Below are positions 19,382 to 64,000 of a stretch of DNA of 64,000 nucleotides, one piece after another. The notes under the pieces are model-generated. The model did not search any database. It had not been told where the DNA came from and saw nothing but the letters and a program-made list of their open reading frames with translations. The translations under genes and the position numbers were made by a program. The stretch is taken from IMG/VR virus record IMGVR_UViG_3300039355_000071; one strand, 5' to 3'. The stretch comes from a virus. The stretch's first letter is position 1, and each line of letters begins with the position of its first letter.

Positions 19382-19684
19382 AATATGTGTAAACGACATG
19401 ACAATACAAACAGATCAAGTGAATTTATCTGTTTAAGATGTCTTAGTAAAAATCAAGTTGGTGATAAAATGCGTAGACCGAATATGAGAGAAAAAGATCA
19501 TGTAAAAAACTTGTGTTGTCTATGTACAAAGTTGCAAATGAGAACTAAAAATCTTGAAGTTAGGTGGTGCGATGATTTTGACGAGCGTATGGAATACGCA
19601 AAGAAAATTAAACCCAGATATTATGATGAGAATAATGAACTGCTACCTGAATGGCAAACGGAGAATATGTATGTAGGAAAGTGA
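19382..19684 (+). CDS. Cys-rich zinc-finger protein (100 aa)
   Basis: RBS GAGGTGA. CLRCLSKN..CCLCTKL. Confidence 0.45.
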   Translation, partial: NMCKRHDNTNRSSEFICLRCLSKNQVGDKMRRPNMREKDHVKNLCCLCTKLQMRTKNLEVRWCDDFDERMEYAKKIKPRYYDENNELLPEWQTENMYVGK

Positions 19685-19689
19685 GGTTG

Positions 19690-20715
19690 ATGAACATGTG
19701 TTACAAAATAGAAGTACAAAACAAAAATGCTGAAAAGCTTAATATGAAGTTGGATGAGTTAAACGCACCACAGTTTTTAAGAGGTTACTTGAATGAATTG
19801 GAAAGTAAAAGTGGAGCGTTAAATTATTTAGTGGCAATTAAAGATTTTTTACAGTGGTTGATTGAAAGTAATATCATTAATAAAAAATCAATTTCTGAAA
19901 TAGAAGTTTCTGATTTTAGTGACTTACGACCACAAAATATTAGTTCATACCTTAGATATAAAGAAACAAATGGAATGTCACCAACCACAACGGAAACAAG
20001 AAAGAATATTATAAAAAGTTTTATAAAAAATGTATATTCATATAGAGAATGTTTATTGAGAGAACTCTATAACAGTATGGAAGATTTTAGTAAACAAATA
20101 AAATATAAAGGAATATCTTCTAAAAACAACTTAACACAAAAACTTCCAACAGAAAATCAGCTTAATGATATGGAAGAAAAAATAATGTGGAAAAAGGATG
20201 AATGTGTAAGGAATAGAAATATTGCTATTTTTCGTGTCTTAAGAGGAACTGGAATAAGAGAGTCTGAACTTGCTGGCTTGGATTTATCAGATTTGCATTT
20301 AGATGAAAATAATGAATATATTGATCTTAATGATATGTCACATATTATGGTTTTACCAAAAGGATATCAAAGAGAAACTGAAAAAAGACCTGTGTATCTT
20401 ACTGGATCTGCTCTGAAAGCATTAAGAGAATGGTTAGAGTATAGAAATACATTGGATAATATTGTAGACAAAGAAGCTGTGTTCGTAAATAAAAATGGTA
20501 CACGTACAACAGAGAGAAATATCAAACAGATATTTGAGAATTATGGAAATGGTATTACTCCACATATGATGCGACATTATTATGCTAGTATAATGAACAG
20601 AAATGGAAATCTTGCATTTGTTCAGCAGCAGTTGGGGCATAGTAGTGTAAATACAACAGTTAATAATTATGCCAATGGAGCTGTGGGAATGAAAACAGTT
20701 TTGGAGAATATGTAA
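19690..20715 (+). CDS. int: tyrosine site-specific recombinase/integrase (XerC/D-like)
   Basis: TGIRESELAGLDLSDL (Arg box), HMMRHYYAS and LGHSSVNTTVNNYAN (His-x-x-Arg and the catalytic Tyr region). RBS GTGAGG. Confidence 0.8.
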   Translation: MNMCYKIEVQNKNAEKLNMKLDELNAPQFLRGYLNELESKSGALNYLVAIKDFLQWLIESNIINKKSISEIEVSDFSDLRPQNISSYLRYKETNGMSPTTTETRKNIIKSFIKNVYSYRECLLRELYNSMEDFSKQIKYKGISSKNNLTQKLPTENQLNDMEEKIMWKKDECVRNRNIAIFRVLRGTGIRESELAGLDLSDLHLDENNEYIDLNDMSHIMVLPKGYQRETEKRPVYLTGSALKALREWLEYRNTLDNIVDKEAVFVNKNGTRTTERNIKQIFENYGNGITPHMMRHYYASIMNRNGNLAFVQQQLGHSSVNTTVNNYANGAVGMKTVLENM

Positions 20716-22264: not shown

Positions 22265-22336
22265 AGGGCATTTGCCAAGCGGTAAGGCACAGGATTTTGA
22301 TTCCTGCATTCACCAGTTCGAATCTGGTATGCCCTG
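22265..22336 (+). tRNA. tRNA-Gln (anticodon UUG)
   Basis: Manual cloverleaf. Acceptor AGGGCAT/ATGCCCT. Anticodon stem CAGGA/TCCTG with loop TTTTGAT. T arm ACCAG-TTCGAAT-CTGGT. 72 nt. Confidence 0.85.
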
Positions 22337-22593
22337 CTATGTAACATTCCACCCGGTATGTTTCAGAACGCAGATTTAAAATCTGTAAGCGCAGACTGTA
22401 AGCTGCGTAAGTTCTTATGGAGAATAACTCACTAAAGAGTTACATAGTCAACAGTTCGTTTCTTGATTTAAAATTTGTTGGCAAGCCTAGCGGTCGGCTA
22501 GTTGTGGATTACAGGTCACATTAATTCTTGTAAAGCTTTGTCCACTTACGGATGTATCCAATGTCAATACCCGTCAGTCTTGGCATTGGTTAT

Positions 22594-22667
22594 GGATCAT
22601 TAGCTCAGTTGGTCAGAGCAACCGGCTCATACCCGGTAAGTCGTAGGTTCGAGTCCTATATGATCCA
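22594..22667 (+). tRNA. tRNA-Met (anticodon CAU; elongator, initiator or Ile-lysidine type not resolved)
   Basis: Acceptor GGATCAT/ATGATCC. D arm GCTC-AGTTGGTCA-GAGC. Anticodon loop CTCATAC. T arm GTAGG-TTCGAGT-CCTAT. 74 nt. Confidence 0.85.
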
Positions 22668-22691
22668 TTACAAAATAATAGTAGAAGGGAG

Positions 22692-24183: not shown

Positions 24184-25590
24184 ATGGCAAAGAAAGTAAG
24201 GGAACAAGCAATCGCATTATCTTCATATTTAAAAAGTGTAAATAGTGAAGATATATCGGAGAATCAGGATGTACAGAGAATGTTTTGTTGGGACAATCCG
24301 GCAATAAATGAACTTATTGTTACTGTACTTACAGATGATTACATTCCTCCTATTATTCTTGGCGAAGAGGAGCTTGGTGGAGATTTAACACAACAATATA
24401 TTGTTGATGGTATTCAAAGAACTACAGCTTTAAATAAGTTCCGTCATATGAATTGGAAAACAACAAAATCATTTGAAAATAGTGTTATTCAGTATCAAGC
24501 GAAAATGAGGGATAGTGAAGGACATCTTATCAAGGATAAAGATGGTAGTATTCTTTGGGAAAATCGGGAGTTTGATATTAAAAATAAAACTTTCGAACAG
24601 TTACCAGATGAACTTAAGAAGAAATTCGATGATTATCAGATTCGTATTGTAATTCATCAAAATTGCACTATGCAGGAAATAAGCAAGCTTGTAAGACGTT
24701 ATAACCGCAACAAGAGTATGGGTTCAAACCAGAAGGCTCTAACATGGATTCCTACATATGCAAGAAAAATTAAGAACATTGCTAATAACGAGTTCTACAA
24801 AAATTGTGTTTCTTACTCAAAGTCAATGCGTAAGAACGGTACATACGAGCAAACAGTTGCAAATTCTGTGATGGCAACATTTCATCTTAATGATTGGAAA
24901 AAGACACCAAACGATAGAAATGAGTACCTTGAAGAGAACTCTTCGTTTGATGAATTTGAAAAGGTAAATGAATATGGAAATCGTATTGCAAAAGTTTGTG
25001 GAAACAAATTTCAGAATATATTCGTATTTAAGGATATTCTTTGTTGGATTGCAACATTCTACAATTTTACAAAATTTGGACTCAAAGATGAGAAATTCGC
25101 AGAGTTTGTAAATGCTCTTGTAAATGAATTACATGGGAAAGTAGTTGGTGAATGGAGTTATGACATGCTTGATAAAGAAGCTGGTACATCTGATAAAAAG
25201 ATTATTCAAGCCAAAATTGAAACATATACCACTTTAATGATGAATTATTTACATATTAATCCAGAAACAGCAATAGAAAATTCAGAAGAAACAACTCTTT
25301 CTTTTGTTCAGGAAAATGCAAATCCTGACGCTACAGAAGAGGATATTGAGTTTTACAGAGATATGGTTGAGGATTGCGTAAGGGTGGACGAGCCTGTATA
25401 TCAGCAGTGTGAAAGGGCTGTAATTGCTATTATGGCTTATGCTTGTATGAAAGAACAAGATGAGGAATTTGAAAAATGGATTCAGAGATATAAAAATCAG
25501 ATAAATTTCAGTCCTTCACAGAAAACAAATTTTACATATATGAAAAATAGTTTTGATAAATATGTTCAGAAAGGAGCTAGTGGGAAATAA
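24184..25590 (+). CDS. DUF262 (ParB/Srx-fold, GmrSD N-terminal-like) domain protein
   Basis: YIVDGIQRTTALNKF matches the DGQQR signature of DUF262. 468 aa. No HNH/DUF1524 C-terminal nuclease motif seen. Confidence 0.5.
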   Translation: MAKKVREQAIALSSYLKSVNSEDISENQDVQRMFCWDNPAINELIVTVLTDDYIPPIILGEEELGGDLTQQYIVDGIQRTTALNKFRHMNWKTTKSFENSVIQYQAKMRDSEGHLIKDKDGSILWENREFDIKNKTFEQLPDELKKKFDDYQIRIVIHQNCTMQEISKLVRRYNRNKSMGSNQKALTWIPTYARKIKNIANNEFYKNCVSYSKSMRKNGTYEQTVANSVMATFHLNDWKKTPNDRNEYLEENSSFDEFEKVNEYGNRIAKVCGNKFQNIFVFKDILCWIATFYNFTKFGLKDEKFAEFVNALVNELHGKVVGEWSYDMLDKEAGTSDKKIIQAKIETYTTLMMNYLHINPETAIENSEETTLSFVQENANPDATEEDIEFYRDMVEDCVRVDEPVYQQCERAVIAIMAYACMKEQDEEFEKWIQRYKNQINFSPSQKTNFTYMKNSFDKYVQKGASGK

Positions 25591-31223: not shown

Positions 31224-32804
31224 ATGAGTAGTATTTTAAGTAACTTAGGAATGGTAATTCCGATTGTAGCAATTGTATTAGTTGTAGTTGGTTTGTTAGT
31301 GGCAGGTTATGTAAAGGCTTCACCTGATAGAGCATACATAATTTCTGGACTTAGAAAAGAACCAAAGGTGTTAATTGGTAAAGCTGGAATCAAAATTCCG
31401 TTTTTAGAAAAGAAAGATGAACTGAATTTGCAGTTGATTCCAATTGATGTAAAGACAAGTAGTGCAGTTCCAACAGCAGATTATATTAACATCAATGTAG
31501 ATGCTGCGGTCAACGTAAAGGTAAGTTCAGACAATACAAGATTACAGCTTGCAGCTCAGAACTTTTTAAATAAACCAGTTGATTATATTGGAAGCGTAGC
31601 AAGAGAAGTTCTTGAAGGAAATATGAGAGAAATTGTTGGTAAGATGAATTTAGAGGAAATGGTTTCAGATAGACAGAAGTTTGCCGAACTTGTAAAAGAG
31701 AATGCAGAACCTGATCTTGCAGCTATGGGACTTGATATTGTAAGTTTCAATGTACAGAACTTTGTTGATGAAAATGGTGTTATTGAGAACCTTGGTGTAG
31801 ATAATATTGTTAAGATTCAGAAAAATGCAGCTATTTCAAGAGCTGAAAGTGAAAAAGAGATTGCAAAAGCAAGAGCTATCGCAAAGAAGGAAGCAAATGA
31901 TGCGGAAGTAAGTTCTGAATTAGAGATTGCAAATGCACAGGCTGAAGCTCAGAAGAAGAAAGCAATCGTTCAGGCTAATGCAAATCGAGAATCACAGGAA
32001 GCTCAGATTGAAGCAGATACTCTTATTGCCCAGAAAGAGAATGAACTTGCGATTAAAAAGGCAGAATTACAGAAAGATGCTGATACAAAGAAAGCAAGTG
32101 CAGATGCAGCATATAATATTCAGCAGGAAACAGAGAGAAAGACAGTTGAGATTGCAACGGCTGATGCAAATCTTGCTCGTCAGGAAAAGGCTATTGCTTT
32201 AAAAGAGAAAGAAGTAGAACTTACAGAGAGAACTCTTGAAGCAACAGTAAAGAAACAGGCAGAAGCTGATAAATATGCAAAACAGCAGGAAGCAGATGCC
32301 AAGTTATACGAAACTCAGAGACAGTCGGAAGCAAAACTGTTTGAGAGACAGAAGAATGCCGAAGCAGAAAAGTTTGAACAGGAAAAGAAAGCAGAAGCTG
32401 AAAAAGCAACAGCAGATGCCAACAGATACACAATGGAACAGGAAGCAGAAGGTATTCGTAGTAAAGGACAGGCAGAAGCGGATGCCATTAAAGCAAAAGC
32501 GTTAGCAGAAGCAGAAGGTATCGAAAAGAAAGCAGAAGCCATGAAACAGATGGGCGAAGCCGCTGTATTAGAGATGTACTTCAAAGCAATGCCTGAGATT
32601 GCTAAGAATATTGCAGAGCCACTTGCGAAGGTTGATAAGATTACAATGTACGGTGATGGCAATTCATCTAAGCTGATGAAAGATATTATGAACACTCTCA
32701 ATCAGGTAACAGATGGAATGAAAGAGTCTACTGGTATTGATCTTAGTTCTGTACTTGCTGGTTTTGCAGGTGCAAAGATTGCAGATAATACACAGAATAA
32801 GTAA
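31224..32804 (+). CDS. flotillin/SPFH (band-7) family membrane protein
   Basis: N-terminal transmembrane helix GMVIPIVAIVLVVVGLLVAG. SPFH-like core. Long Ala/Glu/Lys coiled coil with EAEAEK repeats. This is the YqiK/FloT architecture. Confidence 0.65.
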   Translation: MSSILSNLGMVIPIVAIVLVVVGLLVAGYVKASPDRAYIISGLRKEPKVLIGKAGIKIPFLEKKDELNLQLIPIDVKTSSAVPTADYININVDAAVNVKVSSDNTRLQLAAQNFLNKPVDYIGSVAREVLEGNMREIVGKMNLEEMVSDRQKFAELVKENAEPDLAAMGLDIVSFNVQNFVDENGVIENLGVDNIVKIQKNAAISRAESEKEIAKARAIAKKEANDAEVSSELEIANAQAEAQKKKAIVQANANRESQEAQIEADTLIAQKENELAIKKAELQKDADTKKASADAAYNIQQETERKTVEIATADANLARQEKAIALKEKEVELTERTLEATVKKQAEADKYAKQQEADAKLYETQRQSEAKLFERQKNAEAEKFEQEKKAEAEKATADANRYTMEQEAEGIRSKGQAEADAIKAKALAEAEGIEKKAEAMKQMGEAAVLEMYFKAMPEIAKNIAEPLAKVDKITMYGDGNSSKLMKDIMNTLNQVTDGMKESTGIDLSSVLAGFAGAKIADNTQNK

Positions 32805-33554: not shown

Positions 33555-34583
33555 ATGACAATTGAACAGATTAAGGACAAATTAAAATCAAAAGAGTATG
33601 ACTTCCTGAGAACAGATAAGAATTTGGGTAACAATATCATTATCTTAACTCTTGGTGGAAGTCATGCATATGGAATGGATAAAGAAGGATCTGATTTAGA
33701 TGTGAGAGGTATTGCACTCAACAGCAAATCAGATATTTTACTTGGAACAGACTTTGAACAGGTCGTAGATGTTGATACGGATACAACTATGTATTCGTTT
33801 AATAAAATGATACAGCTTTTAGCATCAAGTAATCCTAATACAATTGAACAACTTGGCTGTTTGCCTGAGCATTATTTACATTTATCTAAAATTGGTAAAG
33901 AATTATTGGATAATAGAAAAATGTTTCTTTCGCAGATTTGTGTTCATACCTTTGGAGGATATGCTGGTTCTCAGCTCAGACGTATGGAAAACAAGGCTGC
34001 AAGATTGGTTGGTCAGGCAGAAAATGAAGCCTACATTTTAAAAAGCATCAATAATGCAAGATATGAATTTAAAAACAGATATTACCCTCATGAAAATAGT
34101 GATGTGAAACTATATATTGATAAGGCTGTTCAAGAAGGATATGATAGTGAGATTTTTATGGATGTAAACTTGCAACATTATCCGTTAAGAGATTGGGCTG
34201 GCATGTGGAACGAAATGAAGTCCATTGTTAGTAGTTATAGCAAATTTGGTAAAAGAAATGAAAAGGCTGTAGCCCATGATAAATTAGGAAAACATATGGC
34301 TCATTTGATTCGATTATATATGATGTGTATTGATATTCTGGAAAAGGAAGAGATTATCACTTATAGATCAGATGAACACGATTTACTTATGAGTATTAGA
34401 AATGGAGAATATTTAGATGAAAATAGACAACCTATTTCTGAGTTCTATGATTTATTGAATGAATATGAAAAACGTTTTGAATACGCAAAAGAAAATACAT
34501 CTTTGCCTGATAAACCTGATTATAAGAAAATCAATGAATTTAAGATGTATGTAAATGAGAGAATTGTGAAAGGAGATATCTGA
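33555..34583 (+). CDS. Pol-beta-superfamily nucleotidyltransferase
   Basis: LTLGGSHAYGMDKEGSDLDVRGI is the GS-x(9-13)-DxD signature. First gene of the overlapping four-gene operon. Confidence 0.55.
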   Translation: MTIEQIKDKLKSKEYDFLRTDKNLGNNIIILTLGGSHAYGMDKEGSDLDVRGIALNSKSDILLGTDFEQVVDVDTDTTMYSFNKMIQLLASSNPNTIEQLGCLPEHYLHLSKIGKELLDNRKMFLSQICVHTFGGYAGSQLRRMENKAARLVGQAENEAYILKSINNARYEFKNRYYPHENSDVKLYIDKAVQEGYDSEIFMDVNLQHYPLRDWAGMWNEMKSIVSSYSKFGKRNEKAVAHDKLGKHMAHLIRLYMMCIDILEKEEIITYRSDEHDLLMSIRNGEYLDENRQPISEFYDLLNEYEKRFEYAKENTSLPDKPDYKKINEFKMYVNERIVKGDI

Positions 34584-35545
34584 TGGAAATATCAAATAGA
34601 GCAAAAGAAAGATTCTGTAAGGATTGCAATATACCAATTAGATTATTCCAAGAGCCATATTTTTTAGATAGAATTAAGCTTTTTGATGAGTTTTATGGAA
34701 CTGTTGACAAGTGGATTAGATTTGTAAGCGAATTACAGGAGTATAATTGTGAGCAGGATTATTTTGAAGAATATAATCATGTAAAGGATGCAGCTATTAC
34801 AAGTATCAAAGAGTCAGAGGCATATCAGAGATTTAATGCGGAAGATATGAACAAATTCACTGTGATTCATAAAAATTTATCTAATAAAGATATATTTAAG
34901 TCAACTAATACTGGAAGAGTTTTTATCAGTATTGATATGAGAAAGGCTAATTTTTCATCTTTACACGAATATGATAAGAATATATTTCGTGGGACTGATA
35001 CATGGGAAGATTTTATTTCTCAATTCACGGATAACGAACATATTGCAAATAGTAAATATATTCGCCAGGTTATTCTTGGTAATTGTAATCCTAAAAGACA
35101 TATCACCTATGAAAAATACCTTATGGATCAGACATTATCGTTATTATATGACATCATTGGTGAAGAGAGAATTGTATTCTTTTCAAATGATGAGATCGTT
35201 TATGATATGACAACTGCAAGTAATTTGCACATGTTAAGTCTTGTGAGAAATTGTGTTGAAGAAAGATTAAATACAAAATCTAATATTCCATTCAGAGTAG
35301 AGTTATTTTCACTCCACAAGATCAATGGTACTGACGGATACTGTAAGAAAATCTATAAAGAAAATGGAGAATATAATATTGAATTTAAGTGTTTGGATAA
35401 TTATATGATGCCATTCGTACTTAGATATTTCTTAGGAGAAGAAATTACTGAAAGTGACAAGGTGTTCTACCATGAAGGGCTATTGGCAAAGTTTATTGAA
35501 GAACCGAAAATTGAGGTGAATTTGGATGAAAAGATTGAAAATTGA
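34583..35545 (+). CDS. hypothetical protein (320 aa), operon partner
   Basis: ATGG overlap with the upstream stop. Confidence 0.5.
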   Translation: MEISNRAKERFCKDCNIPIRLFQEPYFLDRIKLFDEFYGTVDKWIRFVSELQEYNCEQDYFEEYNHVKDAAITSIKESEAYQRFNAEDMNKFTVIHKNLSNKDIFKSTNTGRVFISIDMRKANFSSLHEYDKNIFRGTDTWEDFISQFTDNEHIANSKYIRQVILGNCNPKRHITYEKYLMDQTLSLLYDIIGEERIVFFSNDEIVYDMTTASNLHMLSLVRNCVEERLNTKSNIPFRVELFSLHKINGTDGYCKKIYKENGEYNIEFKCLDNYMMPFVLRYFLGEEITESDKVFYHEGLLAKFIEEPKIEVNLDEKIEN

Positions 35546-36935
35546 AATTCCATCTGGTGCAAATGAAATTATCCATAGTCTACAAAATAATGGATATGAG
35601 GCATTTTTATGTGGCGGTGCAGTAAGAGATAGTATTCTTGGCAGAACAATTCACGATTATGACATTACAACTTCTGCCACACCAGATGAAATGATGGAAG
35701 TATTCAAGGATAAAAGAATTATTGAAACTGGATTACAACATGGAACTATTACCATTGTAATTGACGGTGAAGGATATGAATGTACCACTTACAGAATTGA
35801 CGGTAATTACTCAGATAGTCGTAGACCTGATAGCGTAACATTTACACGAAATCTTAAAGAAGATTTAAAGCGTAGAGATTTTACAATCAATGCGATGGCA
35901 TACAATGATGAAGTTGGACTTGTAGATCCATTTAATGGCATGGAAGATATTGAGCATTATAAAATCAGATGTGTTGGTAGAGCAGAGGATAGATTTTCAG
36001 AAGATGCTTTAAGGATTTTACGTGCTATTCGGTTTGCTTCACAATTGGGATTTGTAGTTGACTCTGATGTAAGTTTGAACATTCATAAAATGTATAAGAA
36101 TTTAGAGAATATATCTATTGAGAGAATCAACAGTGAGTTCTGTAAAATTGCATTATCAAGCGAGTTTTATATACAGATAGGATTATTCCGTGAAGTATTC
36201 TCGTTATTTATTCCTGAAATAAAAGATATGTTTGATTTTCCGCAGAATAATCCATATCACATCTATGATGTATGGAATCATACAGTACATGCAGTACATG
36301 CTTATGAATGTGATTGTGAACCCGACTTGAATCCAAGGGATTTGATTACATCATTGGCTGTATTTTTTCATGATATTGGAAAGCCACATTGTTATCAAGA
36401 TGGCGAGGATGGCATTAGACATTTCAAAGGTCATGGAAGAGTCAGTGCTGATATGACTGATACAATTATGAAAAGACTTCGTTTTGATAATGATACAAGA
36501 GAAAAGGTAATGCAGCTTGTTTATTATCATGATGCAACTTTTGAAGTGGGTGAAAAGTATATCAAGAGATGGCTCAATAAGATTGGAGAAGAACAATTTA
36601 GAAGATTACTGAATGTTCGTAGAGCAGATATTAAAGCGCAGGCTTATACAGATCAAGAAAGTAGGCTTCAGAAAATTGACAATATCGAATATATCTTAGA
36701 GGAAGTTTTACAGAAAGACGAATGTTTCTCACTGAAAGATTTGGCTGTTGATGGCAATGATTTGATTGAGATTGGATATAAGCCAGGAAAAGAAATAGGG
36801 AATACACTGAATTGTCTTTTGCAGTTAGTAATTGAAGGTGTATATCTAAACGAGAAAAGTGAGTTACTTAAATATGTTGAAACAACAAAAGAATGGATGA
36901 AGTTAGGAGAGAATTATAATGGTAAGATTATTTAG
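35526..36935 (+). CDS. cca: CCA-adding enzyme (tRNA nucleotidyltransferase with C-terminal HD domain)
   Basis: LCGGAVRDSILGRTIHDYDITT (GGAVRD plus DxD) and FFHDIGKPH (HD). Confidence 0.8.
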   Translation: MKRLKIEIPSGANEIIHSLQNNGYEAFLCGGAVRDSILGRTIHDYDITTSATPDEMMEVFKDKRIIETGLQHGTITIVIDGEGYECTTYRIDGNYSDSRRPDSVTFTRNLKEDLKRRDFTINAMAYNDEVGLVDPFNGMEDIEHYKIRCVGRAEDRFSEDALRILRAIRFASQLGFVVDSDVSLNIHKMYKNLENISIERINSEFCKIALSSEFYIQIGLFREVFSLFIPEIKDMFDFPQNNPYHIYDVWNHTVHAVHAYECDCEPDLNPRDLITSLAVFFHDIGKPHCYQDGEDGIRHFKGHGRVSADMTDTIMKRLRFDNDTREKVMQLVYYHDATFEVGEKYIKRWLNKIGEEQFRRLLNVRRADIKAQAYTDQESRLQKIDNIEYILEEVLQKDECFSLKDLAVDGNDLIEIGYKPGKEIGNTLNCLLQLVIEGVYLNEKSELLKYVETTKEWMKLGENYNGKII

Positions 36936-38858: not shown

Positions 38859-40364
38859 TTGACAGAGAATAAAGAAAAAAATAATTATTGTGAGTTAAGT
38901 GTAATTGAGCTTTGTAGTGGTATTGGTGCGCAGATGAAGGGAATTGATAATACTCATCTATTTAATGCAAATATGATTGCAACAGCAGATTTAGACAAAG
39001 AAGTAGTAGTTAGTTATGCTGCAATGCATTGTGGTTTGACTAATGAGATGATTGAAAACTATGAAGATTATCCAAGCAAAGAAGAAATGGTAAGACAGCT
39101 TACAGATAAGAGACTTGGATATGATTTTAAAAAAGATGTTCCGTATGATTGGGAAAAACTTTCACGAAAGAAGAACAAGACAAAAGGTATTGAGAAATAT
39201 TGGTTAGCAGACCATATTTCACATAATCTTGGCGATATGATGCAGATTGAGTCACTGCCATATAGTGATTTACTTACATACTCGACTCCATGCACAGATT
39301 TGTCAATCGCCGGTAAACAGGAAGGATTAAAGTGGACATGTCATGATTGTGGTTGTGAATATGATCCATCAGAATTAGATGTAGATACTCGTTATACTTG
39401 CCCTAATTGTGGCAGTCACAACATTAAATCAACTCGTTCAGGTTTATTGTATGAAGTTGAGAGACTTCTTGTAAAAGCAAAAGAGAATAACACATTGCCA
39501 AAGTATTTGCTTATGGAGAATGTAGATGCTCTTGTATCAAAGAAGTATATTGACAGTTTTAAGGATTGGCTGATTCGGCTTGATAACTTGGGATATAACT
39601 CATATTATCAGACAATCAATGCAAAGAACACAGGTGTTCCACAGAATCGTAATAGAATCTTCTGTATCTCTATTCGTAAGGATATTGATACCAAGTCTTT
39701 TGAATTTCCACAGCCTTTTGACACAGGAATCAGATTAAAGGATTTATTAGAAACAGATAGCAGTGTTTTGGCGAAATATTTCTTATCTGATGAAGTACAG
39801 AAAAGACTTCAGATAACAGATCCAAAATTTAAAAAAAATATTGTTGGCACTACAAAACCTGAATTCAGAACTATCGGTCAGAGAGATTTAGTTTATCAGC
39901 AGGATTCAGTAATGGGTACTTTAGTGGCAACTGATTATAAACAGCCAAAACAGATTCTTGCAGATTCAAATAATATAAAAAGACTTTTTAATATTTATGG
40001 TGAAAATAAAGGAACTGGATTCGCAGGAAATGTTTGGGACAAAGATTATATTTCTCCAACAATAACAACATGCCAGGGAGGAAATCGGCAACCAATGGTC
40101 GAAGAAGATAGAGACAATTTAAGAGTTGTGAGAAAGCTCACACCAAAAGAGTGCCACAGGCTCATGGGATTCGATGATATTGATTATGAGAACTGTAAAG
40201 CAGTTGGAATGTCTGATACCCAGGGATATAAACAAAGCGGTAACAGTATAGTGACAACTTGCATCTCTTTGTTGATTGAGCATTTATATAAGGCTCAGTA
40301 TGACAATACATATATTTGTACAGATGAGAAGATGGCAAATTTTCATCAGCCACAAGTGGATTAA
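38859..40364 (+). CDS. DNA (cytosine-5)-methyltransferase with an inserted zinc ribbon
   Basis: Motif I ELCSGIGAQ, IV PCTDLSIAGK, VI ENVDALV, VIII QNRNRIFCISIRKD, X GNSIV. CHDCGCEY..CPNCGSH lies between motifs IV and VI. TTG start as annotated; the true start is uncertain. Confidence 0.75.
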   Translation: MTENKEKNNYCELSVIELCSGIGAQMKGIDNTHLFNANMIATADLDKEVVVSYAAMHCGLTNEMIENYEDYPSKEEMVRQLTDKRLGYDFKKDVPYDWEKLSRKKNKTKGIEKYWLADHISHNLGDMMQIESLPYSDLLTYSTPCTDLSIAGKQEGLKWTCHDCGCEYDPSELDVDTRYTCPNCGSHNIKSTRSGLLYEVERLLVKAKENNTLPKYLLMENVDALVSKKYIDSFKDWLIRLDNLGYNSYYQTINAKNTGVPQNRNRIFCISIRKDIDTKSFEFPQPFDTGIRLKDLLETDSSVLAKYFLSDEVQKRLQITDPKFKKNIVGTTKPEFRTIGQRDLVYQQDSVMGTLVATDYKQPKQILADSNNIKRLFNIYGENKGTGFAGNVWDKDYISPTITTCQGGNRQPMVEEDRDNLRVVRKLTPKECHRLMGFDDIDYENCKAVGMSDTQGYKQSGNSIVTTCISLLIEHLYKAQYDNTYICTDEKMANFHQPQVD

Positions 40365-41404: not shown

Positions 41405-41602
41405 ATGGTAGACATTCAGTGTAAAGACGGAAAATATATTATTGAGGCAAGGATTCATAGTGAAGTTGATACAAATGATATTGCAAAAGTGCAGGAAAGA
41501 TTTACTTCTGATTGTGCTTATGAGTTTGCAGAAGCTATGAGAGAAGCAGTAAACGTTAGCCATTTGGTAATGAAAGAACAAAGAAAAGAGGTAACAAAAT
41601 GA
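41405..41602 (+). CDS. small hypothetical protein (65 aa)
   Basis: RBS AAGGAGAATAAG. Confidence 0.45.
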   Translation: MVDIQCKDGKYIIEARIHSEVDTNDIAKVQERFTSDCAYEFAEAMREAVNVSHLVMKEQRKEVTK

Positions 41603-42111
41603 GCAAAACATTAATCGTAGTAGATATGCAGAATGATTTTATTGATGGCTCACTCGGTACAAAGGAAGCACAGACAATTGTATCGAATGTAGCAAAGAAA
41701 ATTAAGGAGTACAAGGATGCTGGTAAACAGGTAATCTTTACAAGAGACACACACCCTGAGAATTATTTGGAAACATATGAGGGTAAGCATCTTCCTGTTA
41801 CTCACTGTGTAAAGAATACTGTTGGTTGGCAGATTTCAGATAGGTTAGATTTTGATATTGAGAACGATATTCTGATTGATAAGCCTACTTTTGGTTGGTT
41901 AAACTGGAAGGATTTTGGATTTGAAAGTGTTGAGGTTTGCGGATTATGCACCGACATCTGTGTGGTTTCAAATGCACTTATTATTAGAGCAAATTATCCT
42001 GAGATTGATATTACAGTAGATGCAAGCTGTTGTGCAGGTGTCACACCTGATACTCACAATGCTGCATTAGCAACTATGAAGATGTGTCAGATCGAAGTGA
42101 TTGGAGAGTAG
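41599..42111 (+). CDS. isochorismatase-family cysteine hydrolase (nicotinamidase PncA-like)
   Basis: LIVVDMQNDF and CGLCTDICV (catalytic Asp and Cys context). 170 aa. Confidence 0.6.
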   Translation: MSKTLIVVDMQNDFIDGSLGTKEAQTIVSNVAKKIKEYKDAGKQVIFTRDTHPENYLETYEGKHLPVTHCVKNTVGWQISDRLDFDIENDILIDKPTFGWLNWKDFGFESVEVCGLCTDICVVSNALIIRANYPEIDITVDASCCAGVTPDTHNAALATMKMCQIEVIGE

Positions 42112-42114
42112 AAT

Positions 42115-42951
42115 ATGATTAAAATTAATGGCGAAATTGTAACAATCAACAAGTTTCCAGATGGAACACCAAGAGTAAATATTGATATAAACAACATTGA
42201 GGAAGACTCTTATGATGGCTCTCCTTGTATTTGGATTGAATGGATTTATGAGAGTAACGATGAGATATTTTATCTGATGTTAGTAAAGAAACATCTTGAA
42301 AGATTTTTTACTAATGTGGATTATTATTTGTCTCTTCCATATATTCCTAATGCACGAATGGATAGAGTAAAAAATGATGATGAAGTATTCACATTGAAGT
42401 ATTTTTGCGATTTTATCAATTGGTTAGGATTTTCATCAGTTTATGTTTTAGATGCTCATAGCGATGTTTCTACTGCATTACTCAATAATTGTGTAAAAGA
42501 AAATCCAAAAGAGTATGTTGATAAAGCTATTTCAAAGATTGGTATGAGAAATCTTGTACTTTATTTCCCAGATGCAGGTGCAGCTAAGAGATATTCAGAT
42601 TTATTTCCTGAGTTACCATATTGTTATGGTGAAAAGAAGAGAGATTGGAAGACTGGTAAAATCCTTGGATTAGACATTAGAACAAATGGTATTGATTTGA
42701 AAGATAAAGCTGTGTTAATGATTGATGATATTATCGCATATGGCGGTTCACTTTATTATAGTGCAGAAGAATTGAAGAAACATGGTGTAACTGAGATTTA
42801 TGCATATGCCACTCATACAGAGAATTCAATTCTTAATAAAGAAAAAGGAACATTAATCAAATCTTTGGAGAATAATACTGTGAACAGATTATTTACCACA
42901 AACAGTTTATTTAATGGTAGTCATGAAAAAATTACGGTTATGGAGGTTTAA
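42115..42951 (+). CDS. ribose-phosphate pyrophosphokinase (Prs)-like enzyme; candidate ADPR-pyrophosphate synthetase (Adps) of a NARP1 module
   Basis: KFPDGT (N-terminus), VLDAHSDV, FPDAGAAKRY, VLMIDDIIAYGGSL (PRPP-binding-like loop). Confidence 0.65.
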   Translation: MIKINGEIVTINKFPDGTPRVNIDINNIEEDSYDGSPCIWIEWIYESNDEIFYLMLVKKHLERFFTNVDYYLSLPYIPNARMDRVKNDDEVFTLKYFCDFINWLGFSSVYVLDAHSDVSTALLNNCVKENPKEYVDKAISKIGMRNLVLYFPDAGAAKRYSDLFPELPYCYGEKKRDWKTGKILGLDIRTNGIDLKDKAVLMIDDIIAYGGSLYYSAEELKKHGVTEIYAYATHTENSILNKEKGTLIKSLENNTVNRLFTTNSLFNGSHEKITVMEV

Positions 42952-42955
42952 AATT

Positions 42956-44416
42956 ATGGATAACACAATGGCTTTATTATTATCAGATACTTATAAACAG
43001 TGTCATGATCGCATGTACCCAAATGGTTTGACTAAATTGGTGTCGTATTGGGTGCCTCGAAAATCAATGTTAGAGAATCAGAATGAAATGGTTTTCTTTG
43101 GATTGCAGGCATTTATCAAAGAATATTTAATGGGAGATTTTCAGAAAAATTTCTTCGATTTATCGGAAGATGAGATGTTAACTCTTTATACAGATTCGAT
43201 GGATGTACAGATTGGTAGAGACAACTATGATTTAGATAAAATTGTAGAGCTTCACAGATTAGGATATTTACCACTTGAGATTAGAGCATTGCCAGAAGGT
43301 ACACTTGTTCCTATGGGTGTTCCTTGTATTGAGATTACAAATACGGATGATAAATTTGCTTGGCTTGTTCAGTGGATTGAATGTATTCTTCAGGTAGAAT
43401 TATGGAAACCTTGTTGTCATGCAACTATCGGTCATATGTATCGTGAAATTGCAGATTATTGGTATAACAAGACAACAGACGGATTGCCTGGAAATATGGC
43501 TTGTGCGGATTTTGGCATGAGAGGAATGTCTTGTATGGATGAAGCTACAAGATGTTCAGCATCATGGTTGCTTTCATTTAATAAGACATCTACAATTCCA
43601 GCAATTAATTATATTGATAGATATTACAATGCCGATTGTAAGAATAATGGTATTGGAATCGGTGCTGTCTCAACTGAGCATTCTGTAATGGGTGCTAATT
43701 TCTCAATTGATGGAGATGAGATTACGTTTGTTAAAAGACTTTTAACAGAGTTATATCCAAATACATCATTTAGTATGGTTTCAGATACTTATGATTATTG
43801 GAATATGGTAAATAATATTCTTCCACAGTGTAAAGAAGAGATTATGAATCATAATGGAAAGCTCTTGGTTCGTCCTGATAGTGGTGATATTGTAGAGATT
43901 TCAGTTAAAACAGTTGAAAGGTTGTGGGAGATTTTTGGTGGTTCTGTAAATGGTAAAGGTTATAAGGTATTAAATCCGCATATCGGTATTATTTATGGTG
44001 ATGGCTGCACACTTTCTAATGTAGAAACTATTTGGAAAGAATTAGAAAAGCGTGGTTTCGCAGCTAATAATATTGCTTATGGTGTAGGAGCTTTTTGCTT
44101 CACTGCAATCGTTGAAAACGGCAAGATGATTGTTGTTACAAGAGATACTTTTGGTATTGCAATGAAAGCTACATATGGAGTAATTGATGGCAAGAAGTTA
44201 ATGATTTTCAAAGATCCTAAGACAGATACAAGTCACTTAAAGAAATCTCATAAAGGATGTTGTAGAGTATACGATGATAACGGTGAATTAAAGTGTCAAG
44301 ATCAGTTACTTGAAATGAGTGATAACAGTTTACTTACTACCGTATTTAAAGATGGAGAATTAGTAAGAGAAGATACATTTGCGGATATTAGAAACAGAAT
44401 GTACGGAGGTAAGTAA
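42956..44416 (+). CDS. NAMPT-family type II phosphoribosyltransferase; candidate nicotinamide-ADPR transferase (Namat)
   Basis: N-terminal LLLSDTYKQCH (the D-[ST]-Y-K motif of NAMPT/PncB). About 487 aa from the RBS-supported ATG 42956. Confidence 0.65.
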   Translation: MDNTMALLLSDTYKQCHDRMYPNGLTKLVSYWVPRKSMLENQNEMVFFGLQAFIKEYLMGDFQKNFFDLSEDEMLTLYTDSMDVQIGRDNYDLDKIVELHRLGYLPLEIRALPEGTLVPMGVPCIEITNTDDKFAWLVQWIECILQVELWKPCCHATIGHMYREIADYWYNKTTDGLPGNMACADFGMRGMSCMDEATRCSASWLLSFNKTSTIPAINYIDRYYNADCKNNGIGIGAVSTEHSVMGANFSIDGDEITFVKRLLTELYPNTSFSMVSDTYDYWNMVNNILPQCKEEIMNHNGKLLVRPDSGDIVEISVKTVERLWEIFGGSVNGKGYKVLNPHIGIIYGDGCTLSNVETIWKELEKRGFAANNIAYGVGAFCFTAIVENGKMIVVTRDTFGIAMKATYGVIDGKKLMIFKDPKTDTSHLKKSHKGCCRVYDDNGELKCQDQLLEMSDNSLLTTVFKDGELVREDTFADIRNRMYGGK

Positions 44417-44877
44417 TGATTAAAATTATTGATGGAGACTTACTCACTTCGAACACTGATATTATTGCACACCAGGTTAATTGCAAAGGTGCTTTTAATT
44501 CTGGTGTTGCAAAAGCGATCCGTGATTATGATGTGCAAGTATATAAAGATTATCATAGTTTTTGTTCGATTAATACACCTGAACAATTATTGGGTTCTGT
44601 TAGATATTTTCAGTCTAATATTGACGCAAGAATATATGCAAATTTATTTGCACAAAAATCATATGGCTATGACGGAAAACAGTATACAGATATTGACGCT
44701 TTAAGAAAATGTTTTGAAAATTTGAGATCATATGCAGTTTTGGAAAATATGAGTATTGCAATGCCATATAAAATTGGATGTGTTCGTGGCGGTGCAAATT
44801 GGGAAGAAGTGTATCAAATGATAAATGATATATTTGAAAATTGTAATATTGAATTATGGAGGTTAGATAAAGGATGA
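44416..44877 (+). CDS. macro-domain (ADP-ribose-binding/processing) protein
   Basis: IIDGDLLTSNTDIIAHQVNCKGAFNSGVAKAI. Confidence 0.65.
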   Translation: MIKIIDGDLLTSNTDIIAHQVNCKGAFNSGVAKAIRDYDVQVYKDYHSFCSINTPEQLLGSVRYFQSNIDARIYANLFAQKSYGYDGKQYTDIDALRKCFENLRSYAVLENMSIAMPYKIGCVRGGANWEEVYQMINDIFENCNIELWRLDKG

Positions 44878-45632
44878 GTAATTTTGATGCTAAGAAAGTA
44901 AAGAATGAGATCGTAGAGTGGATTAGAGATTGGTTTGAACAGAATGGTAAAGATTGTATGGCAGTAGTTGGAATTTCTGGCGGTAAGGATTCAAGCGTTG
45001 TTGCTGGCTTATGTTGTGAAGCTCTTGGAAAAGATAGAGTTTTTGGTGTAATGATGCCACAGGGAGAACAGCCAGATATTGATTATTCTCGAATGCTTAT
45101 AGACCATCTTGGAATCGACAGTTGTGTTGTAAATATAGGCAATACAGTTCGCACTTTAAAGCATGAGATTAAACCACAGTTGGGAGATCATTGGTCAAAG
45201 CAGACTTCTACAAATCTCCCTGCTCGTATTCGTATGACTACGCTTTATGCAGTATCGCAGACAGTAAATGGTCGTGTCGCTAATACGTGTAATCTTTCAG
45301 AAACATTACTATCTTGGGAAACCAGATGGGGTGATGCAGTTGGAGATTTTGCACCAATTAGCGACTTAACAGTAAAAGAAGTGAAAGCTATTGGATATGA
45401 ACTTGGATTGCCAAATGAATTAATCGAAAAAATTCCGTCTGATGGACTGTGTGGAAGTACAGATGAAGATGCATTGGGATTTAAATACTCTGTTATGGAT
45501 AGATATATTAGAACAGGCGAGATTGACGACAAAGATATTAAAAAGAAAATTGATAATCGAGTAGAAAAATATCGGTTTAAGAGAATGCCTATTCCTTATT
45601 ATAAAACAGGTATGGAAAGATATGTAGACTAA
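44874..45632 (+). CDS. nadE: NH3-dependent NAD+ synthetase
   Basis: VVGISGGKDSSVVAGL (PP-loop SGGxDS). 252 aa. Confidence 0.7.
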   Translation: MSNFDAKKVKNEIVEWIRDWFEQNGKDCMAVVGISGGKDSSVVAGLCCEALGKDRVFGVMMPQGEQPDIDYSRMLIDHLGIDSCVVNIGNTVRTLKHEIKPQLGDHWSKQTSTNLPARIRMTTLYAVSQTVNGRVANTCNLSETLLSWETRWGDAVGDFAPISDLTVKEVKAIGYELGLPNELIEKIPSDGLCGSTDEDALGFKYSVMDRYIRTGEIDDKDIKKKIDNRVEKYRFKRMPIPYYKTGMERYVD

Positions 45633-45633
45633 A

Positions 45634-46833
45634 ATGGCAGAAGACTTAACTAATTTACAATTTGGAAAATTAACAGTCATCAAACGTGGAGACAACGATA
45701 AAAGCGGACATGTGAGATGGTGGTGTAAATGTGACTGTGGCAACCCTAAATTGATTTTAGTTGCCGCAGGACATTTAAAATCAGGACATACTCAATCATG
45801 TGGATGTATAAGAAGAGATAATATTAAACCACAAAAGAATTTAGAAGGAAAAAGATTTGGGAAATTAATTGTAAAAGAATTTCTTGGTATAAAAAATCAT
45901 AGATCATTATGGAGTTGTGATTGTGATTGTGGTAAGAAAATTAACGCTTTATCATCGTCTTTAACTTCTGGAAAACTTAAGTCATGTGGATGTTTATCTT
46001 CTGTAGCTGAGTTCGAATTAAGCCAGTTCTTGACAGATGAACAAATTATATTTGATACGCAATATAAGTTTGATGATTGTAAATATAAAAGAAGATTGCC
46101 ATTCGATTTTGCAATTTTTCATCCACAAAATAAGAAACTCTTATTTTTAATTGAACTACATGGAGAACAGCATTATTTTCCGTTTACATTTAATAGTGAG
46201 TCTGATATGCAAAAGAAGGAAAATTTTTTGCATAGAAAACATTTGGATAAATTAAAAGAAGATTATTGTAGTGAAAATAATATTCCATTGTTAATTATTA
46301 GATATACAAATTTTCAAACAAAAGAAAAAATTGTAAAAGGGTTTTATGAAAAGCTCTTGCAAAAGAATATTACATTTGATGATTATATATTTTCATCAAA
46401 ACAAATAAAGGATGATTTACAAGTAAAGCATAAACGTGTCTATAAAAGAAAAGTAGTCCAAATAGATATACCCAACAAGAATATTATAAGAGAATATAAT
46501 AGTATGGAAGAGGCATATAAGATAACTGGAATATCATCTGGACAGATTTCGGATTGTTGTAAGGGTAATTGTAAAACAGCAGGTGGATATGCCTGGGCAT
46601 ATAATAACGGAAACGTTAATATTGAAGAAGTAATTAAACGTGCAACAATTCCAAATAGAACAAATGCAGTTGTGATTTTCCAAAAAGATAAAAATGGAAA
46701 TATTATAAAAGAGTGGCAAAGTATAACAGAAGCAGCACATTCTTTGGGAGTAAGTCATCAAGGTATTCAAGCGTGTTGTTCAGGAAAGCAGAAAACTTGT
46801 AAAGGATTTGTTTGGAATTATAAGAAAGATTGA
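45634..46833 (+). mobile_element. homing-endonuclease-like gene: zinc-ribbon repeats, DUF559/Vsr-like PD-(D/E)xK nuclease core, C-terminal NUMOD-like DNA-binding repeats
   Basis: FGKLxV..W.C.CDCG..SCGC repeated twice. LPFDFAIFHPQNKKLLFLIELHGEQHY. Duplicated EY.S..EA...TGIS...I..CC.GK.KT..G..W.Y modules. Confidence 0.45.
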
Positions 46834-63248: not shown

Positions 63249-64000
63249 ATGCCAGTACATGATGATTTAGGCTGTCGCATGAAGACATTTTATGAGCAGA
63301 TTCCTAAGACAAAATTAATGAGAAGATGCCCAGTTGCTATCCGCATTGATGGAAAAGCGTTTCATACATTCACAAGAGGATTCCAGAAACCGTTTGATGA
63401 AGTGTTAATCAGGTCTATGCAGGAAACAATGAAATACTTATGCGAGAATATTCAAGGCTGTGTTCTTGGTTACACACAATCAGACGAGATTACATTAATC
63501 CTTGTTGATTATAAGAAGCTCACATCTTCAGCATGGTTTGATTATGAGGTGCAGAAAATTTGTAGTATTACAGCAAGTATGACTACGATGGCATTTAATA
63601 AATTTTTTGAAAAGTATGTTGACGAATATAGATTTAGTAAATGGGATGGTGTTTCAAAATATGAGGATGGTACATGGGGATATATTCAGACATTACTAAA
63701 TGCAGTTGACAAAGGTGCAATGTTTAATGCTCGTTGCTTCAATATTCCAAAAGAAGAAGTAACAAATCTCGTATATTGGCGACAACTTGACGCTTCTCGT
63801 AACTCAATTCAGATGGTAGGTCAAGCCAATTTCTCACACAAAGAATTACAGAATAAGTCATGTAATGATATTCAGGATATGCTTATGATTCAAAAAGGTA
63901 TTAACTGGAATGATTTGCCGACTTATCAGAAGAGGGGAAGCTGTTGTGTAAAACGTGAATTCTGGGTTGATAAAAATGATGGCGAAGAGTTTAGTAAAGA
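63249..64000 (+). CDS. Thg1-like protein (tRNA-His guanylyltransferase family 3'-5' polymerase), truncated by the window end
   Basis: RBS AGAGAGG. AIRIDGKAFHTF, YTQSDEITLIL and YWRQLDASRNSI match the Thg1 signatures VVRLDGRNFHRF, YGQSDEYSFVF and SWRQADCHINNL. Confidence 0.7.
   Translation, partial: MPVHDDLGCRMKTFYEQIPKTKLMRRCPVAIRIDGKAFHTFTRGFQKPFDEVLIRSMQETMKYLCENIQGCVLGYTQSDEITLILVDYKKLTSSAWFDYEVQKICSITASMTTMAFNKFFEKYVDEYRFSKWDGVSKYEDGTWGYIQTLLNAVDKGAMFNARCFNIPKEEVTNLVYWRQLDASRNSIQMVGQANFSHKELQNKSCNDIQDMLMIQKGINWNDLPTYQKRGSCCVKREFWVDKNDGEEFSK

Follow-up and report, generated by a model that had tools for sequence, protein, structure and literature searches.

The DNA stretch analysed here, 64,000 nucleotides of the IMG/VR virus record IMGVR_UViG_3300039355_000071 (the window, at its full length), carries a compact group of genes for nicotinamide adenine dinucleotide (NAD+) and ADP-ribose (ADPR) metabolism. 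At positions 41599-45632, the list of open reading frames (ORFs) of the window holds five intact, tightly packed ORFs on the + strand. They encode a PncA-like nicotinamidase (41599..42111, 170 aa; Pfam Isochorismatase, 3e-29), an Adps-type homologue of the phosphoribosyl pyrophosphate (PRPP) synthetase Prs (42115..42951, 278 aa; Pribosyltran, 2e-7; phrog_619, 9e-65), a Namat-clade transferase (42956..44416, 486 aa; NAPRTase and NAMPT_N; phrog_448, 3e-162), a macro domain protein (44416..44877, 153 aa; phrog_335 “phosphatase,” 3e-39), and the NH3-dependent NAD+ synthetase NadE (44874..45632, 252 aa; NAD_synthase, 1e-50; TIGR00552, 168 bits). A preliminary description of this DNA had placed five such genes in this interval. 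Its coordinates are exact, and searches with hidden Markov models (HMMs) confirm all of its domain calls.

The spacing between consecutive genes is 3, 4, −1, and −4 nt, and every start has its own Shine-Dalgarno sequence. The reading frame of the transferase is open from 42914, which would give 500 aa. As the homologues have 484-488 aa and a GGAGG lies 9 nt upstream of the ATG at 42956, the latter is most likely the start codon. A scan for promoters and terminators gave sites that were no more numerous than in shuffled sequence. The boundaries of the operon are therefore undefined, and the five genes lie within a long co-directional array on the + strand. A megablast search of the island against 50,697 phage records gave no match, and protein-level searches were required.

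The second protein resembles Adps more than a housekeeping PRPP synthetase. It shares 35% identity with the experimentally verified Adps of SPbetaL1 (E 4e-43, 135 bits) versus 52 bits with the nearest PRPP synthetase, that of B. subtilis, and it scores under the cut-off of all NCBIfam Prs models. In structures of ICP1 Adps, Phe18, Arg87, His121, Asp161, Lys185, Asp212, and Asp213 are the ADPR-contact or catalytic residues (PMC13586617). All seven are invariant in an alignment of the ICP1, SPbetaL1, window, MT835544, and Phass-1 proteins. ICP1 Phe92 is a lysine in the window protein, but the verified SPbetaL1 Adps does not conserve it either. With 278 aa, the window protein is shorter than the B. 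subtilis PRPP synthetase (317 aa), which agrees with a report that Adps has lost the C-terminal alpha11-alpha12 region.

The transferase matches the SPbetaL1 Namat structures 9w5x and 9w5w at E 1.5e-113 with 41% identity. The chain 9ke8, which was deposited as a nicotinamide phosphoribosyltransferase, follows at 4e-90 and human NAMPT at about 1e-55. Models of the PncB type (TIGR01513, NF009131, and NF006696) reach 21-25 bits against cut-offs of 297-503. A further match is to an NCBI model called “nicotinate phosphoribosyltransferase” (NF006629, 465 bits). We take it as a NAMPT-family model in view of the NAMPT_N match and the matches to Namat and NAMPT structures. By these comparisons, the transferase is a member of the Namat group rather than of NAMPT or PncB. 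The catalytic core of Namat is kept, namely Asp13, Tyr15, Phe189, Arg192, the His of TEHS, Arg306, Asp308, Gly360-Asp361, and the Thr-Arg-Asp motif. The earlier proposal that the Prs-like and NAMPT-like genes form a pair of the NARP1 kind (Adps and Namat), not a housekeeping Prs with a PncB, is thus borne out by the scores of both proteins.

The pyridine pocket is where the window enzyme departs from Namat. In Namat, nicotinamide is held by Phe189, Arg192, Asp215, Ala242, and Arg306 together with Asp13′ and Tyr15′ of the partner subunit (PMC12774641). Asp215 is hydrogen-bonded to the amide of nicotinamide, and the D215A variant has an 8-fold lower activity (PMC12774641). In the window transferase, five of these seven residues are conserved, Asp215 is replaced by Ser212 (codon 43589..43591, + strand), and Ala242, which lines the nicotinamide pocket, is replaced by Ser239 (codon 43670..43672, + strand). 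The motif around the aspartate reads GTDT in 9w5x, in 9ke8, and in the NAMPT of Xanthomonas (Xcc; 7yqo), and KTST in the window. The motif around the alanine reads A[TSA]EHS in SPbetaL1 Namat, 9ke8, and Xanthomonas NAMPT, and STEHS in the window. Since Ser212 and Ser239 do not match the Namat pocket, we did not assign the enzyme as a nicotinamide ADP-ribose transferase. Asp215 corresponds to Asp219 of human NAMPT. This residue is described as fundamental to substrate specificity, and a D219S variant as switching substrate affinity (Khan et al. 2006, cited in PMC7096376 and in PMC4919578 Table 2); the latter source also lists D219A as a loss of activity. The window thus has the same Asp-to-Ser substitution at the same position in the pyridine pocket of the same family. 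In contrast to the engineered variant, the change here is natural, extends over a whole clade, is coupled to an Ala-to-Ser change, and occurs in a lineage whose donor is ADPR-pyrophosphate (ADPR-PP) rather than PRPP.

Both positions change together. An exhaustive search of 1.8 billion proteins gave 150 cluster representatives at 50% identity, to which four reference sequences were added. In this set, Asp215 with Ala242 occurs 92 times and [Ala/Ser]215 with Ser242 49 times. The mixed combinations, Asp with Ser or [Ala/Ser] with Ala, do not occur (0). In a neighbor-joining tree, all 47 representatives with the variant pocket fall into one clade, which contains a single Asp + Ala sequence. A subgroup of canonical Namat has Glu215 with Ala242 (loci L186, L196, L206-L208, L278, and L299-L316). 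NadE or PncA is never found with it, and a HAD-like gene is nearby in about half of the cases.

The type of pocket is associated with the neighboring genes. We gathered 408 loci from IMG/VR, GTDB genomes, and GenBank phage records and scanned all stop-to-stop ORFs with purpose-built family HMMs. The counts refer to 264 distinct ORFs of the Namat family that are flanked by 4 kb or more on each side. Next to the 183 enzymes with the variant pocket, [Ala/Ser]215 + Ser242, we found PncA in 180 loci, Adps in 180, NadE in 179, a macro gene in 113, NADAR in 33, and a HAD-like gene in 27. The 81 enzymes with the canonical pocket, [Asp/Glu]215 + Ala242, are accompanied by Adps in all 81 loci, by a macro gene in 23, by NADAR in 7, and by a HAD-like gene in 17; PncA and NadE are found in none. 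After clustering at 70% identity, NadE is present in 15 of 16 variant clusters versus 0 of 49 canonical clusters. Divergent NadE or PncA proteins hidden in the canonical loci were considered and ruled out, since with the HMMER filters switched off (E < 10) the best E value was about 1.

PncA, Adps, and NadE occur all together in 175 of the 183 variant loci, so that the island is a conserved unit, as had been supposed. The set persists across lineages that have diverged to 33% identity, and the order of the genes differs in MT835544 (Adps, Namat, macro, NadE, PncA). The grouping is hence not due to chance, as it is held by so many loci, across several diverged enzyme lineages, with a change of order in at least one. 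Alleles have also been shuffled within the phage family of the window, where a transferase of 99% identity can stand beside an Adps of 66%, a PncA of 67%, or a NadE of 62% identity. The survival of the set through divergence, change of gene order, and allele shuffling argues against mere inheritance. In L007, L018, L026, and others, the transferase is 98-99% identical to that of the window, with Adps at 66-67%, PncA at 67-74%, or NadE at 59-64%. Such mosaicism within one phage family implies frequent recombination at the gene boundaries. In L405, a gene for an SPFH protein takes the place of NadE directly after the transferase.

The flanking enzymes keep their catalytic residues. The closest relative of known structure of the PncA-like protein is the nicotinamidase of P. 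horikoshii (1IM5, 1e-16). In the alignment with 1IM5, the catalytic Asp9, Lys95, and Cys121 and the metal ligands Asp50, His52, and His69 are all kept. Its relatives in the phage record collection amount to just 7 records, all from uncultured human-gut phages. NadE exceeds the TIGR00552 cut-off of 63.65 bits with a score of 168 bits. It is a single-domain protein without a glutaminase part and has an SGGKDS P-loop at residue 35.

The macro gene lies inside the operon and overlaps the stop codon of the transferase by 1 nt. The profile of the NARP1-linked macro proteins matches BT1257 (2e-24), DarG (6e-21), TARG1 (4e-18), and Poa1p (6LFQ, 2e-14). The sole match in a PADLOC scan is also DarG-like, to the macro domain (2e-14). 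The family is found in 625 phage records, frequently annotated as Poa1p-like. The protein may be an Adpp-like phosphatase acting on ADPR-1″-phosphate, or else an ADP-ribosyl hydrolase of the DarG/TARG1 type. As it is no more distant from DarG and TARG1 than from Poa1p, it may release ADPR from ADP-ribosylated targets, as had been suggested at first. In relatives of the window, this slot is filled by a NADAR protein (PF08719, 2.7e-27) or by a small HAD-like protein that has a DxDxT motif, with the macro gene or instead of it. The slot is thus an accessory position whose contents can be exchanged, which is also the case in canonical NARP1 loci. Between transferase and NadE, it behaves as a cassette (L010:8961-9374, L056:8469-8876, L005:6576-6995), in which the macro gene is either followed by NADAR or replaced by a HAD-like DxDxT protein of 135 aa (phrog_1238). 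Of the 81 canonical NARP1 loci, 7 have a NADAR gene and 17 a HAD-like gene; both are unmentioned as NARP1 accessories in the NARP1 literature that we searched.

The adenine clamp of the transferase was also compared. In Namat, the clamp consists of the SCH motif GSX-phi-X-phi-X-phi-TRD, in which positions 3 and 7 are aromatic, and of a stacking Arg, Lys, or Tyr in the SCL loop (PMC12774641). In the window, the clamp helix (44087..44146, + strand) reads GAFCFTAIVENGKMIVVTRD, which replaces GSFTYQYNTRD. It corresponds to GAFCFT, nine further residues, and VVTRD, i.e., it has an insertion of 9 aa, retains the Phe at position 3, and has lost the aromatic residue at position 7. Some variant lineages such as that of Phass-1 retain a full canonical clamp (GAYTYQYVTRD). 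The Phe at position 3 is retained in nearly all variants; two loci in which Adps was not detected have Leu or His. In L401, L388, and L362, the residue at position 3 is Tyr, Leu, or His.

Insertions also occur in this family. The canonical Namat homologues P0151, P0207, and P0226 have an intein-like insertion of about 300 aa exactly within the clamp motif (GSFCVTP...HNTYQMNTRD), and a second insertion, around residue 316 and next to the RPDSGD motif, is found in many other representatives. The 646-aa variant transferases P0113-P0116 are 71-72% identical to that of the window and contain about 160 residues without a Pfam match; one of their clusters comprises 2406 sequences. Among the long homologues, we looked for PncA-Namat or Namat-NadE fusions in the sense of a Rosetta stone, and none were identified. 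The identifiable extra parts are homing-endonuclease-like (HNH/AP2), a GP88 domain, or a second copy of the transferase; others have no Pfam match.

Several phage pathways that restore NAD+ have been described. NARP1 consists of Adps and Namat (Osterman et al., bioRxiv 10.1101/2024.02.11.579819). As in NARP1, the Adps-clade gene of the window stands immediately upstream of the Namat-clade gene, 4 nt apart. It differs from NARP1 by Asp215Ser, Ala242Ser, and the altered clamp, and in that the variant pairs are nearly always joined by PncA and NadE and the canonical ones never (0 of 81). NARP1-AP is NARP1 with the macro phosphatase Adpp, which converts the ADPR-1″-phosphate made by the aRES defence to ADPR; it is found in 15% of the phages with NARP1 (bioRxiv 10.64898/2026.01.28.702374, January 2026). 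The window likewise has a small macro gene of the Poa1p/TARG1/DarG class next to Namat, as do about 62% of the variant and about 28% of the canonical loci. However, the order is Adps-Namat-macro in the window versus Adps-macro-Namat in Vibrio phage Gary, PncA and NadE are extra, and the macro slot of the window's relatives is interchangeable with NADAR and HAD-like genes.

By NARP2 (Nampt and Nmnat) and by the unrelated NARP3 (PnuC and NadR) (PMC13464706), phages likewise restore NAD+ in the face of depleting defences, but these pathways build it via nicotinamide mononucleotide (NMN), not from ADPR or through nicotinic acid adenine dinucleotide (NaAD). The scanned ORFs of the window contain no bifunctional Nmnat/Nudix-type nucleotidyltransferase as in NARP2, the GxFxPxHxGH motif is absent from the window, and the partner of the transferase is Adps. 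Nmnat, NadR, and PnuC were not seen in the scans of the window. NARP3 and the RyR-domain glycosidase RyDEP had been considered as explanations of the extra genes; neither domain occurs in the five genes. Full-text literature searches found no paper that joins NARP1 with a nicotinamidase, NadE, nicotinate, or NaAD. The extended five-gene combination had initially been regarded as an undescribed unit. This holds in part: Adps, Namat, and macro together are already published as NARP1-AP, and the addition of PncA and NadE with a routing through nicotinate appears to be new.

On balance, we favor the reading that the operon is a serial, nicotinate-routed (deamidated) form of NARP1-AP which would rebuild NAD+ after immune depletion. 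The substrates and products of each step and the anti-defence role are predicted from the gene content, the family placements, the two pocket substitutions, and the association with PncA and NadE. Immune NADases would cleave NAD+ to nicotinamide and ADPR (or ADPR-1″-phosphate). PncA would then deamidate nicotinamide to nicotinate and NH3, and Adps would convert ADPR and ATP to ADPR-PP and AMP. The variant transferase is predicted to join nicotinate and ADPR-PP directly to NaAD with release of PPi, and NadE would amidate NaAD to NAD+ with ATP and NH3. From an ADPR derivative, the macro domain protein would produce free ADPR and so feed the pathway. In this scheme, the NH3 released by PncA balances that spent by NadE, and the cost is one ATP more than in NARP1.

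The nicotinate route is likely the main, serial route because the amide-binding Asp is lost, the Ala-to-Ser change is coupled to this loss, and PncA and NadE co-occur with the variant pocket almost without exception. For the same reasons, the earlier suggestion that PncA and NadE provide a parallel deamidated route is not upheld. The four-step scheme is the simplest one, as it uses every gene and needs no absent gene. It is further supported by the catalytic residues that each enzyme retains and by the macro and NADAR genes, which sit inside the operon as in canonical NARP1. A NadD enzyme would be needed if the transferase made nicotinic acid mononucleotide (NaMN). As a weak search detected no NadD-like gene in the window or in 328 loci, direct formation of NaAD is favored over the NaMN route, and the NaAD route is self-contained.

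Several observations weigh against this serial reading. The NadD search itself is weak: the window has neither a tblastn match nor a GxFxPxHxGH motif, the 328 loci with flanks of about 8 kb gave no match either, and the query was an approximate E. coli sequence. Both clamp elements differ from the verified Namat, as the clamp-loop residue Arg40 is also replaced, by Met38 (codon 43067-43069, + strand); because of these two alterations, the use of ADPR-PP is less secure for the window enzyme than for the Phass-1 type. Moreover, PRPP is also accepted by the verified Namat in vitro (PMC12774641). Three loci in metagenome-assembled genomes (MAGs) of termite-gut Oscillospiraceae (L401, L388, and L362) have PncA followed by a variant transferase, with Adps not detected and NadE in L401 alone. 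They suggest that some variant members use PRPP, and the enzymes of these loci may be NAMPT-family nicotinate transferases that work with PRPP. Exceptions also exist among the loci with full flanks: L405 and L406 are without NadE, and L345 is without PncA and Adps. As the variants form one clade, the association may trace to a single ancestral event, and the Fisher p value of 8e-64, which is not corrected for phylogeny, overstates independence. Finally, the route is longer and costlier; as a speculation, it might be favored by fast deamidation of nicotinamide by the host in Clostridia, by the pull of the irreversible NadE step, or by an intermediate that escapes NADases.

Some of these points would fit a plain phage version of the Preiss-Handler pathway (PncA, PncB, NadD, NadE), with nicotinate from PncA, PRPP from the Prs-like protein, NaMN from the transferase, NaAD from a host NadD, and NadE of the phage as the last enzyme. 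The operon resembles this pathway in having a nicotinamidase first, NadE last, and deamidated intermediates. The pocket change indicates nicotinate whichever ribosyl donor is used, the clamp is altered in both elements, the PRPP activity of the verified Namat is retained, the three bacterial-looking loci without Adps combine PncA with the variant enzyme (and in one case also with NadE), and pncB-nadD-nadE clusters are reported in jumbo phages (PMC11662467). It differs, however, in that the window has no PncB-type enzyme, a NadD was not found in the window or the 328 loci by the weak search described above, and the Adps/Namat-type pair would take nicotinate to NaAD in one step. The Prs-like protein also sides with Adps by its bit scores, its failure to reach any Prs cut-off, and its conserved Phe18 and Arg87. 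Of the 183 variant loci, 180 have Adps, the window and nearly all variants retain the clamp Phe at position 3, and genes acting on ADPR derivatives (macro and NADAR) are embedded in the operon. We therefore hold a Preiss-Handler set to be unlikely, but with the altered clamp of the window enzyme a PRPP-based route of this kind is still a serious alternative. A transferase that still works on nicotinamide, or on both pyridines, in a canonical NARP1-AP with PncA and NadE as an independent parallel salvage add-on is in our view quite unlikely. Its catalytic core is intact, and human NAMPT D219S is described as altering substrate affinity, not as abolishing activity (PMC4919578). Yet the 8-fold loss of D215A in Namat (PMC12774641) and the listing of human D219A as a loss of activity argue otherwise. 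An add-on would also need a separate nicotinate transferase and NadD, neither of which is present as a separate gene, and it leaves unexplained why PncA and NadE are found in 0 of 81 canonical loci and why no enzyme linked to these two genes has kept the Asp. The operon might also be a general auxiliary metabolic module that raises the NAD+ supply in NAD-poor gut anaerobes, with no tie to immune depletion. The many NAD synthesis genes of jumbo and gut phages have been interpreted along these lines (PMC11662467). ADPR as an input makes sense only after cleavage of NAD+, though, homologues of Adps and Namat demonstrably act against Thoeris, DSR2, Nezha, Kongming, and SPARSA, and other neighbors in the window, a DNA methylase and tRNA repair enzymes, resemble counter-defence genes; we consider this explanation improbable.

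Relatives of the operon lie on IMG/VR contigs of roughly 90-180 kb and in genomes or MAGs from Lachnospiraceae bacterium A4, Ruminococcus sp. AM36-2AA, Thomasclavelia cocleata, Pseudoruminococcus massiliensis, Roseburia, and Christensenella. Because of these relatives and of a tyrosine integrase in the window (19651-20715), the phage is probably temperate and infects gut Clostridia. The same pathway is found in Phass-1 (L005; OQ749652.1, 97783-101298), a gut phage of a stop-codon-recoded clade with code 15, which has a HAD-like gene in the slot and whose NadE is annotated merely as a hypothetical protein.

Upstream of the operon, the window encodes tRNA-Gln(TTG) (22265-22337), tRNA-Met(CAT) (22593-22668), a GmrSD_N-like protein (24184-25590), and an SPFH/flotillin protein (31224-32804). 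An RlaP-family nucleotidyltransferase (3e-21), a CCA-adding enzyme with an HD domain (9e-38), and a Thg1-like tRNA-His guanylyltransferase (8e-30) are encoded at 33555-36935 and 63249-64000; these genes for tRNA repair or maturation may counter anticodon nucleases. A C5 cytosine DNA methyltransferase (38859-40364, 4e-49) contains, at residues 137-192, an insertion that resembles a zinc ribbon and gives a HypA-like match. Together, the C5 methylase, the CCA-adding enzyme, the RlaP-family protein, and the Thg1-like enzyme fit a counter-defence region. An HNH/NUMOD homing endonuclease (45634-46833) starts 1 nt after NadE. It is found in only some relatives, nearly always beside a NadE that is 93-100% identical to that of the window; in relatives without it, NadE is mostly an allele of 59-80% identity. 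Such a distribution points to homing in which the flanking gene is co-converted.

NAD+ depletion is among the commonest anti-phage strategies of bacteria, and the known phage answers, NARP1, NARP1-AP, NARP2, and NARP3, all use amidated intermediates. Judging from the sequences, we see about an even chance that the [Ala/Ser]215 + Ser242 clade comprises undescribed nicotinate ADP-ribose transferases which, with PncA and NadE, form a fourth kind of phage NAD+ reconstitution pathway. Such a pathway might be an adaptation to gut Clostridia, in which the deamidation of nicotinamide may be fast, or its NaAD/NadE step might escape a block of NARP1. If this is true, the formation of NaAD directly from ADPR-PP would be a new enzymatic reaction, and the clade would provide a natural case of the Asp-to-Ser specificity switch that is so far known from mutagenesis of NAMPT. 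It would also give phage-encoded nicotinamidase and NadE their first defined job. The two-residue rule at positions 215 and 242 lets annotators separate the two kinds of Namat. The closest transferase clusters comprise thousands of metagenome sequences, and the variant abounds in gut Clostridia's phages and prophages, among them those of Lachnospiraceae, Ruminococcus, Christensenella, and relatives. The module is thus not rare and may shape the dynamics between phages and their hosts in the human gut.

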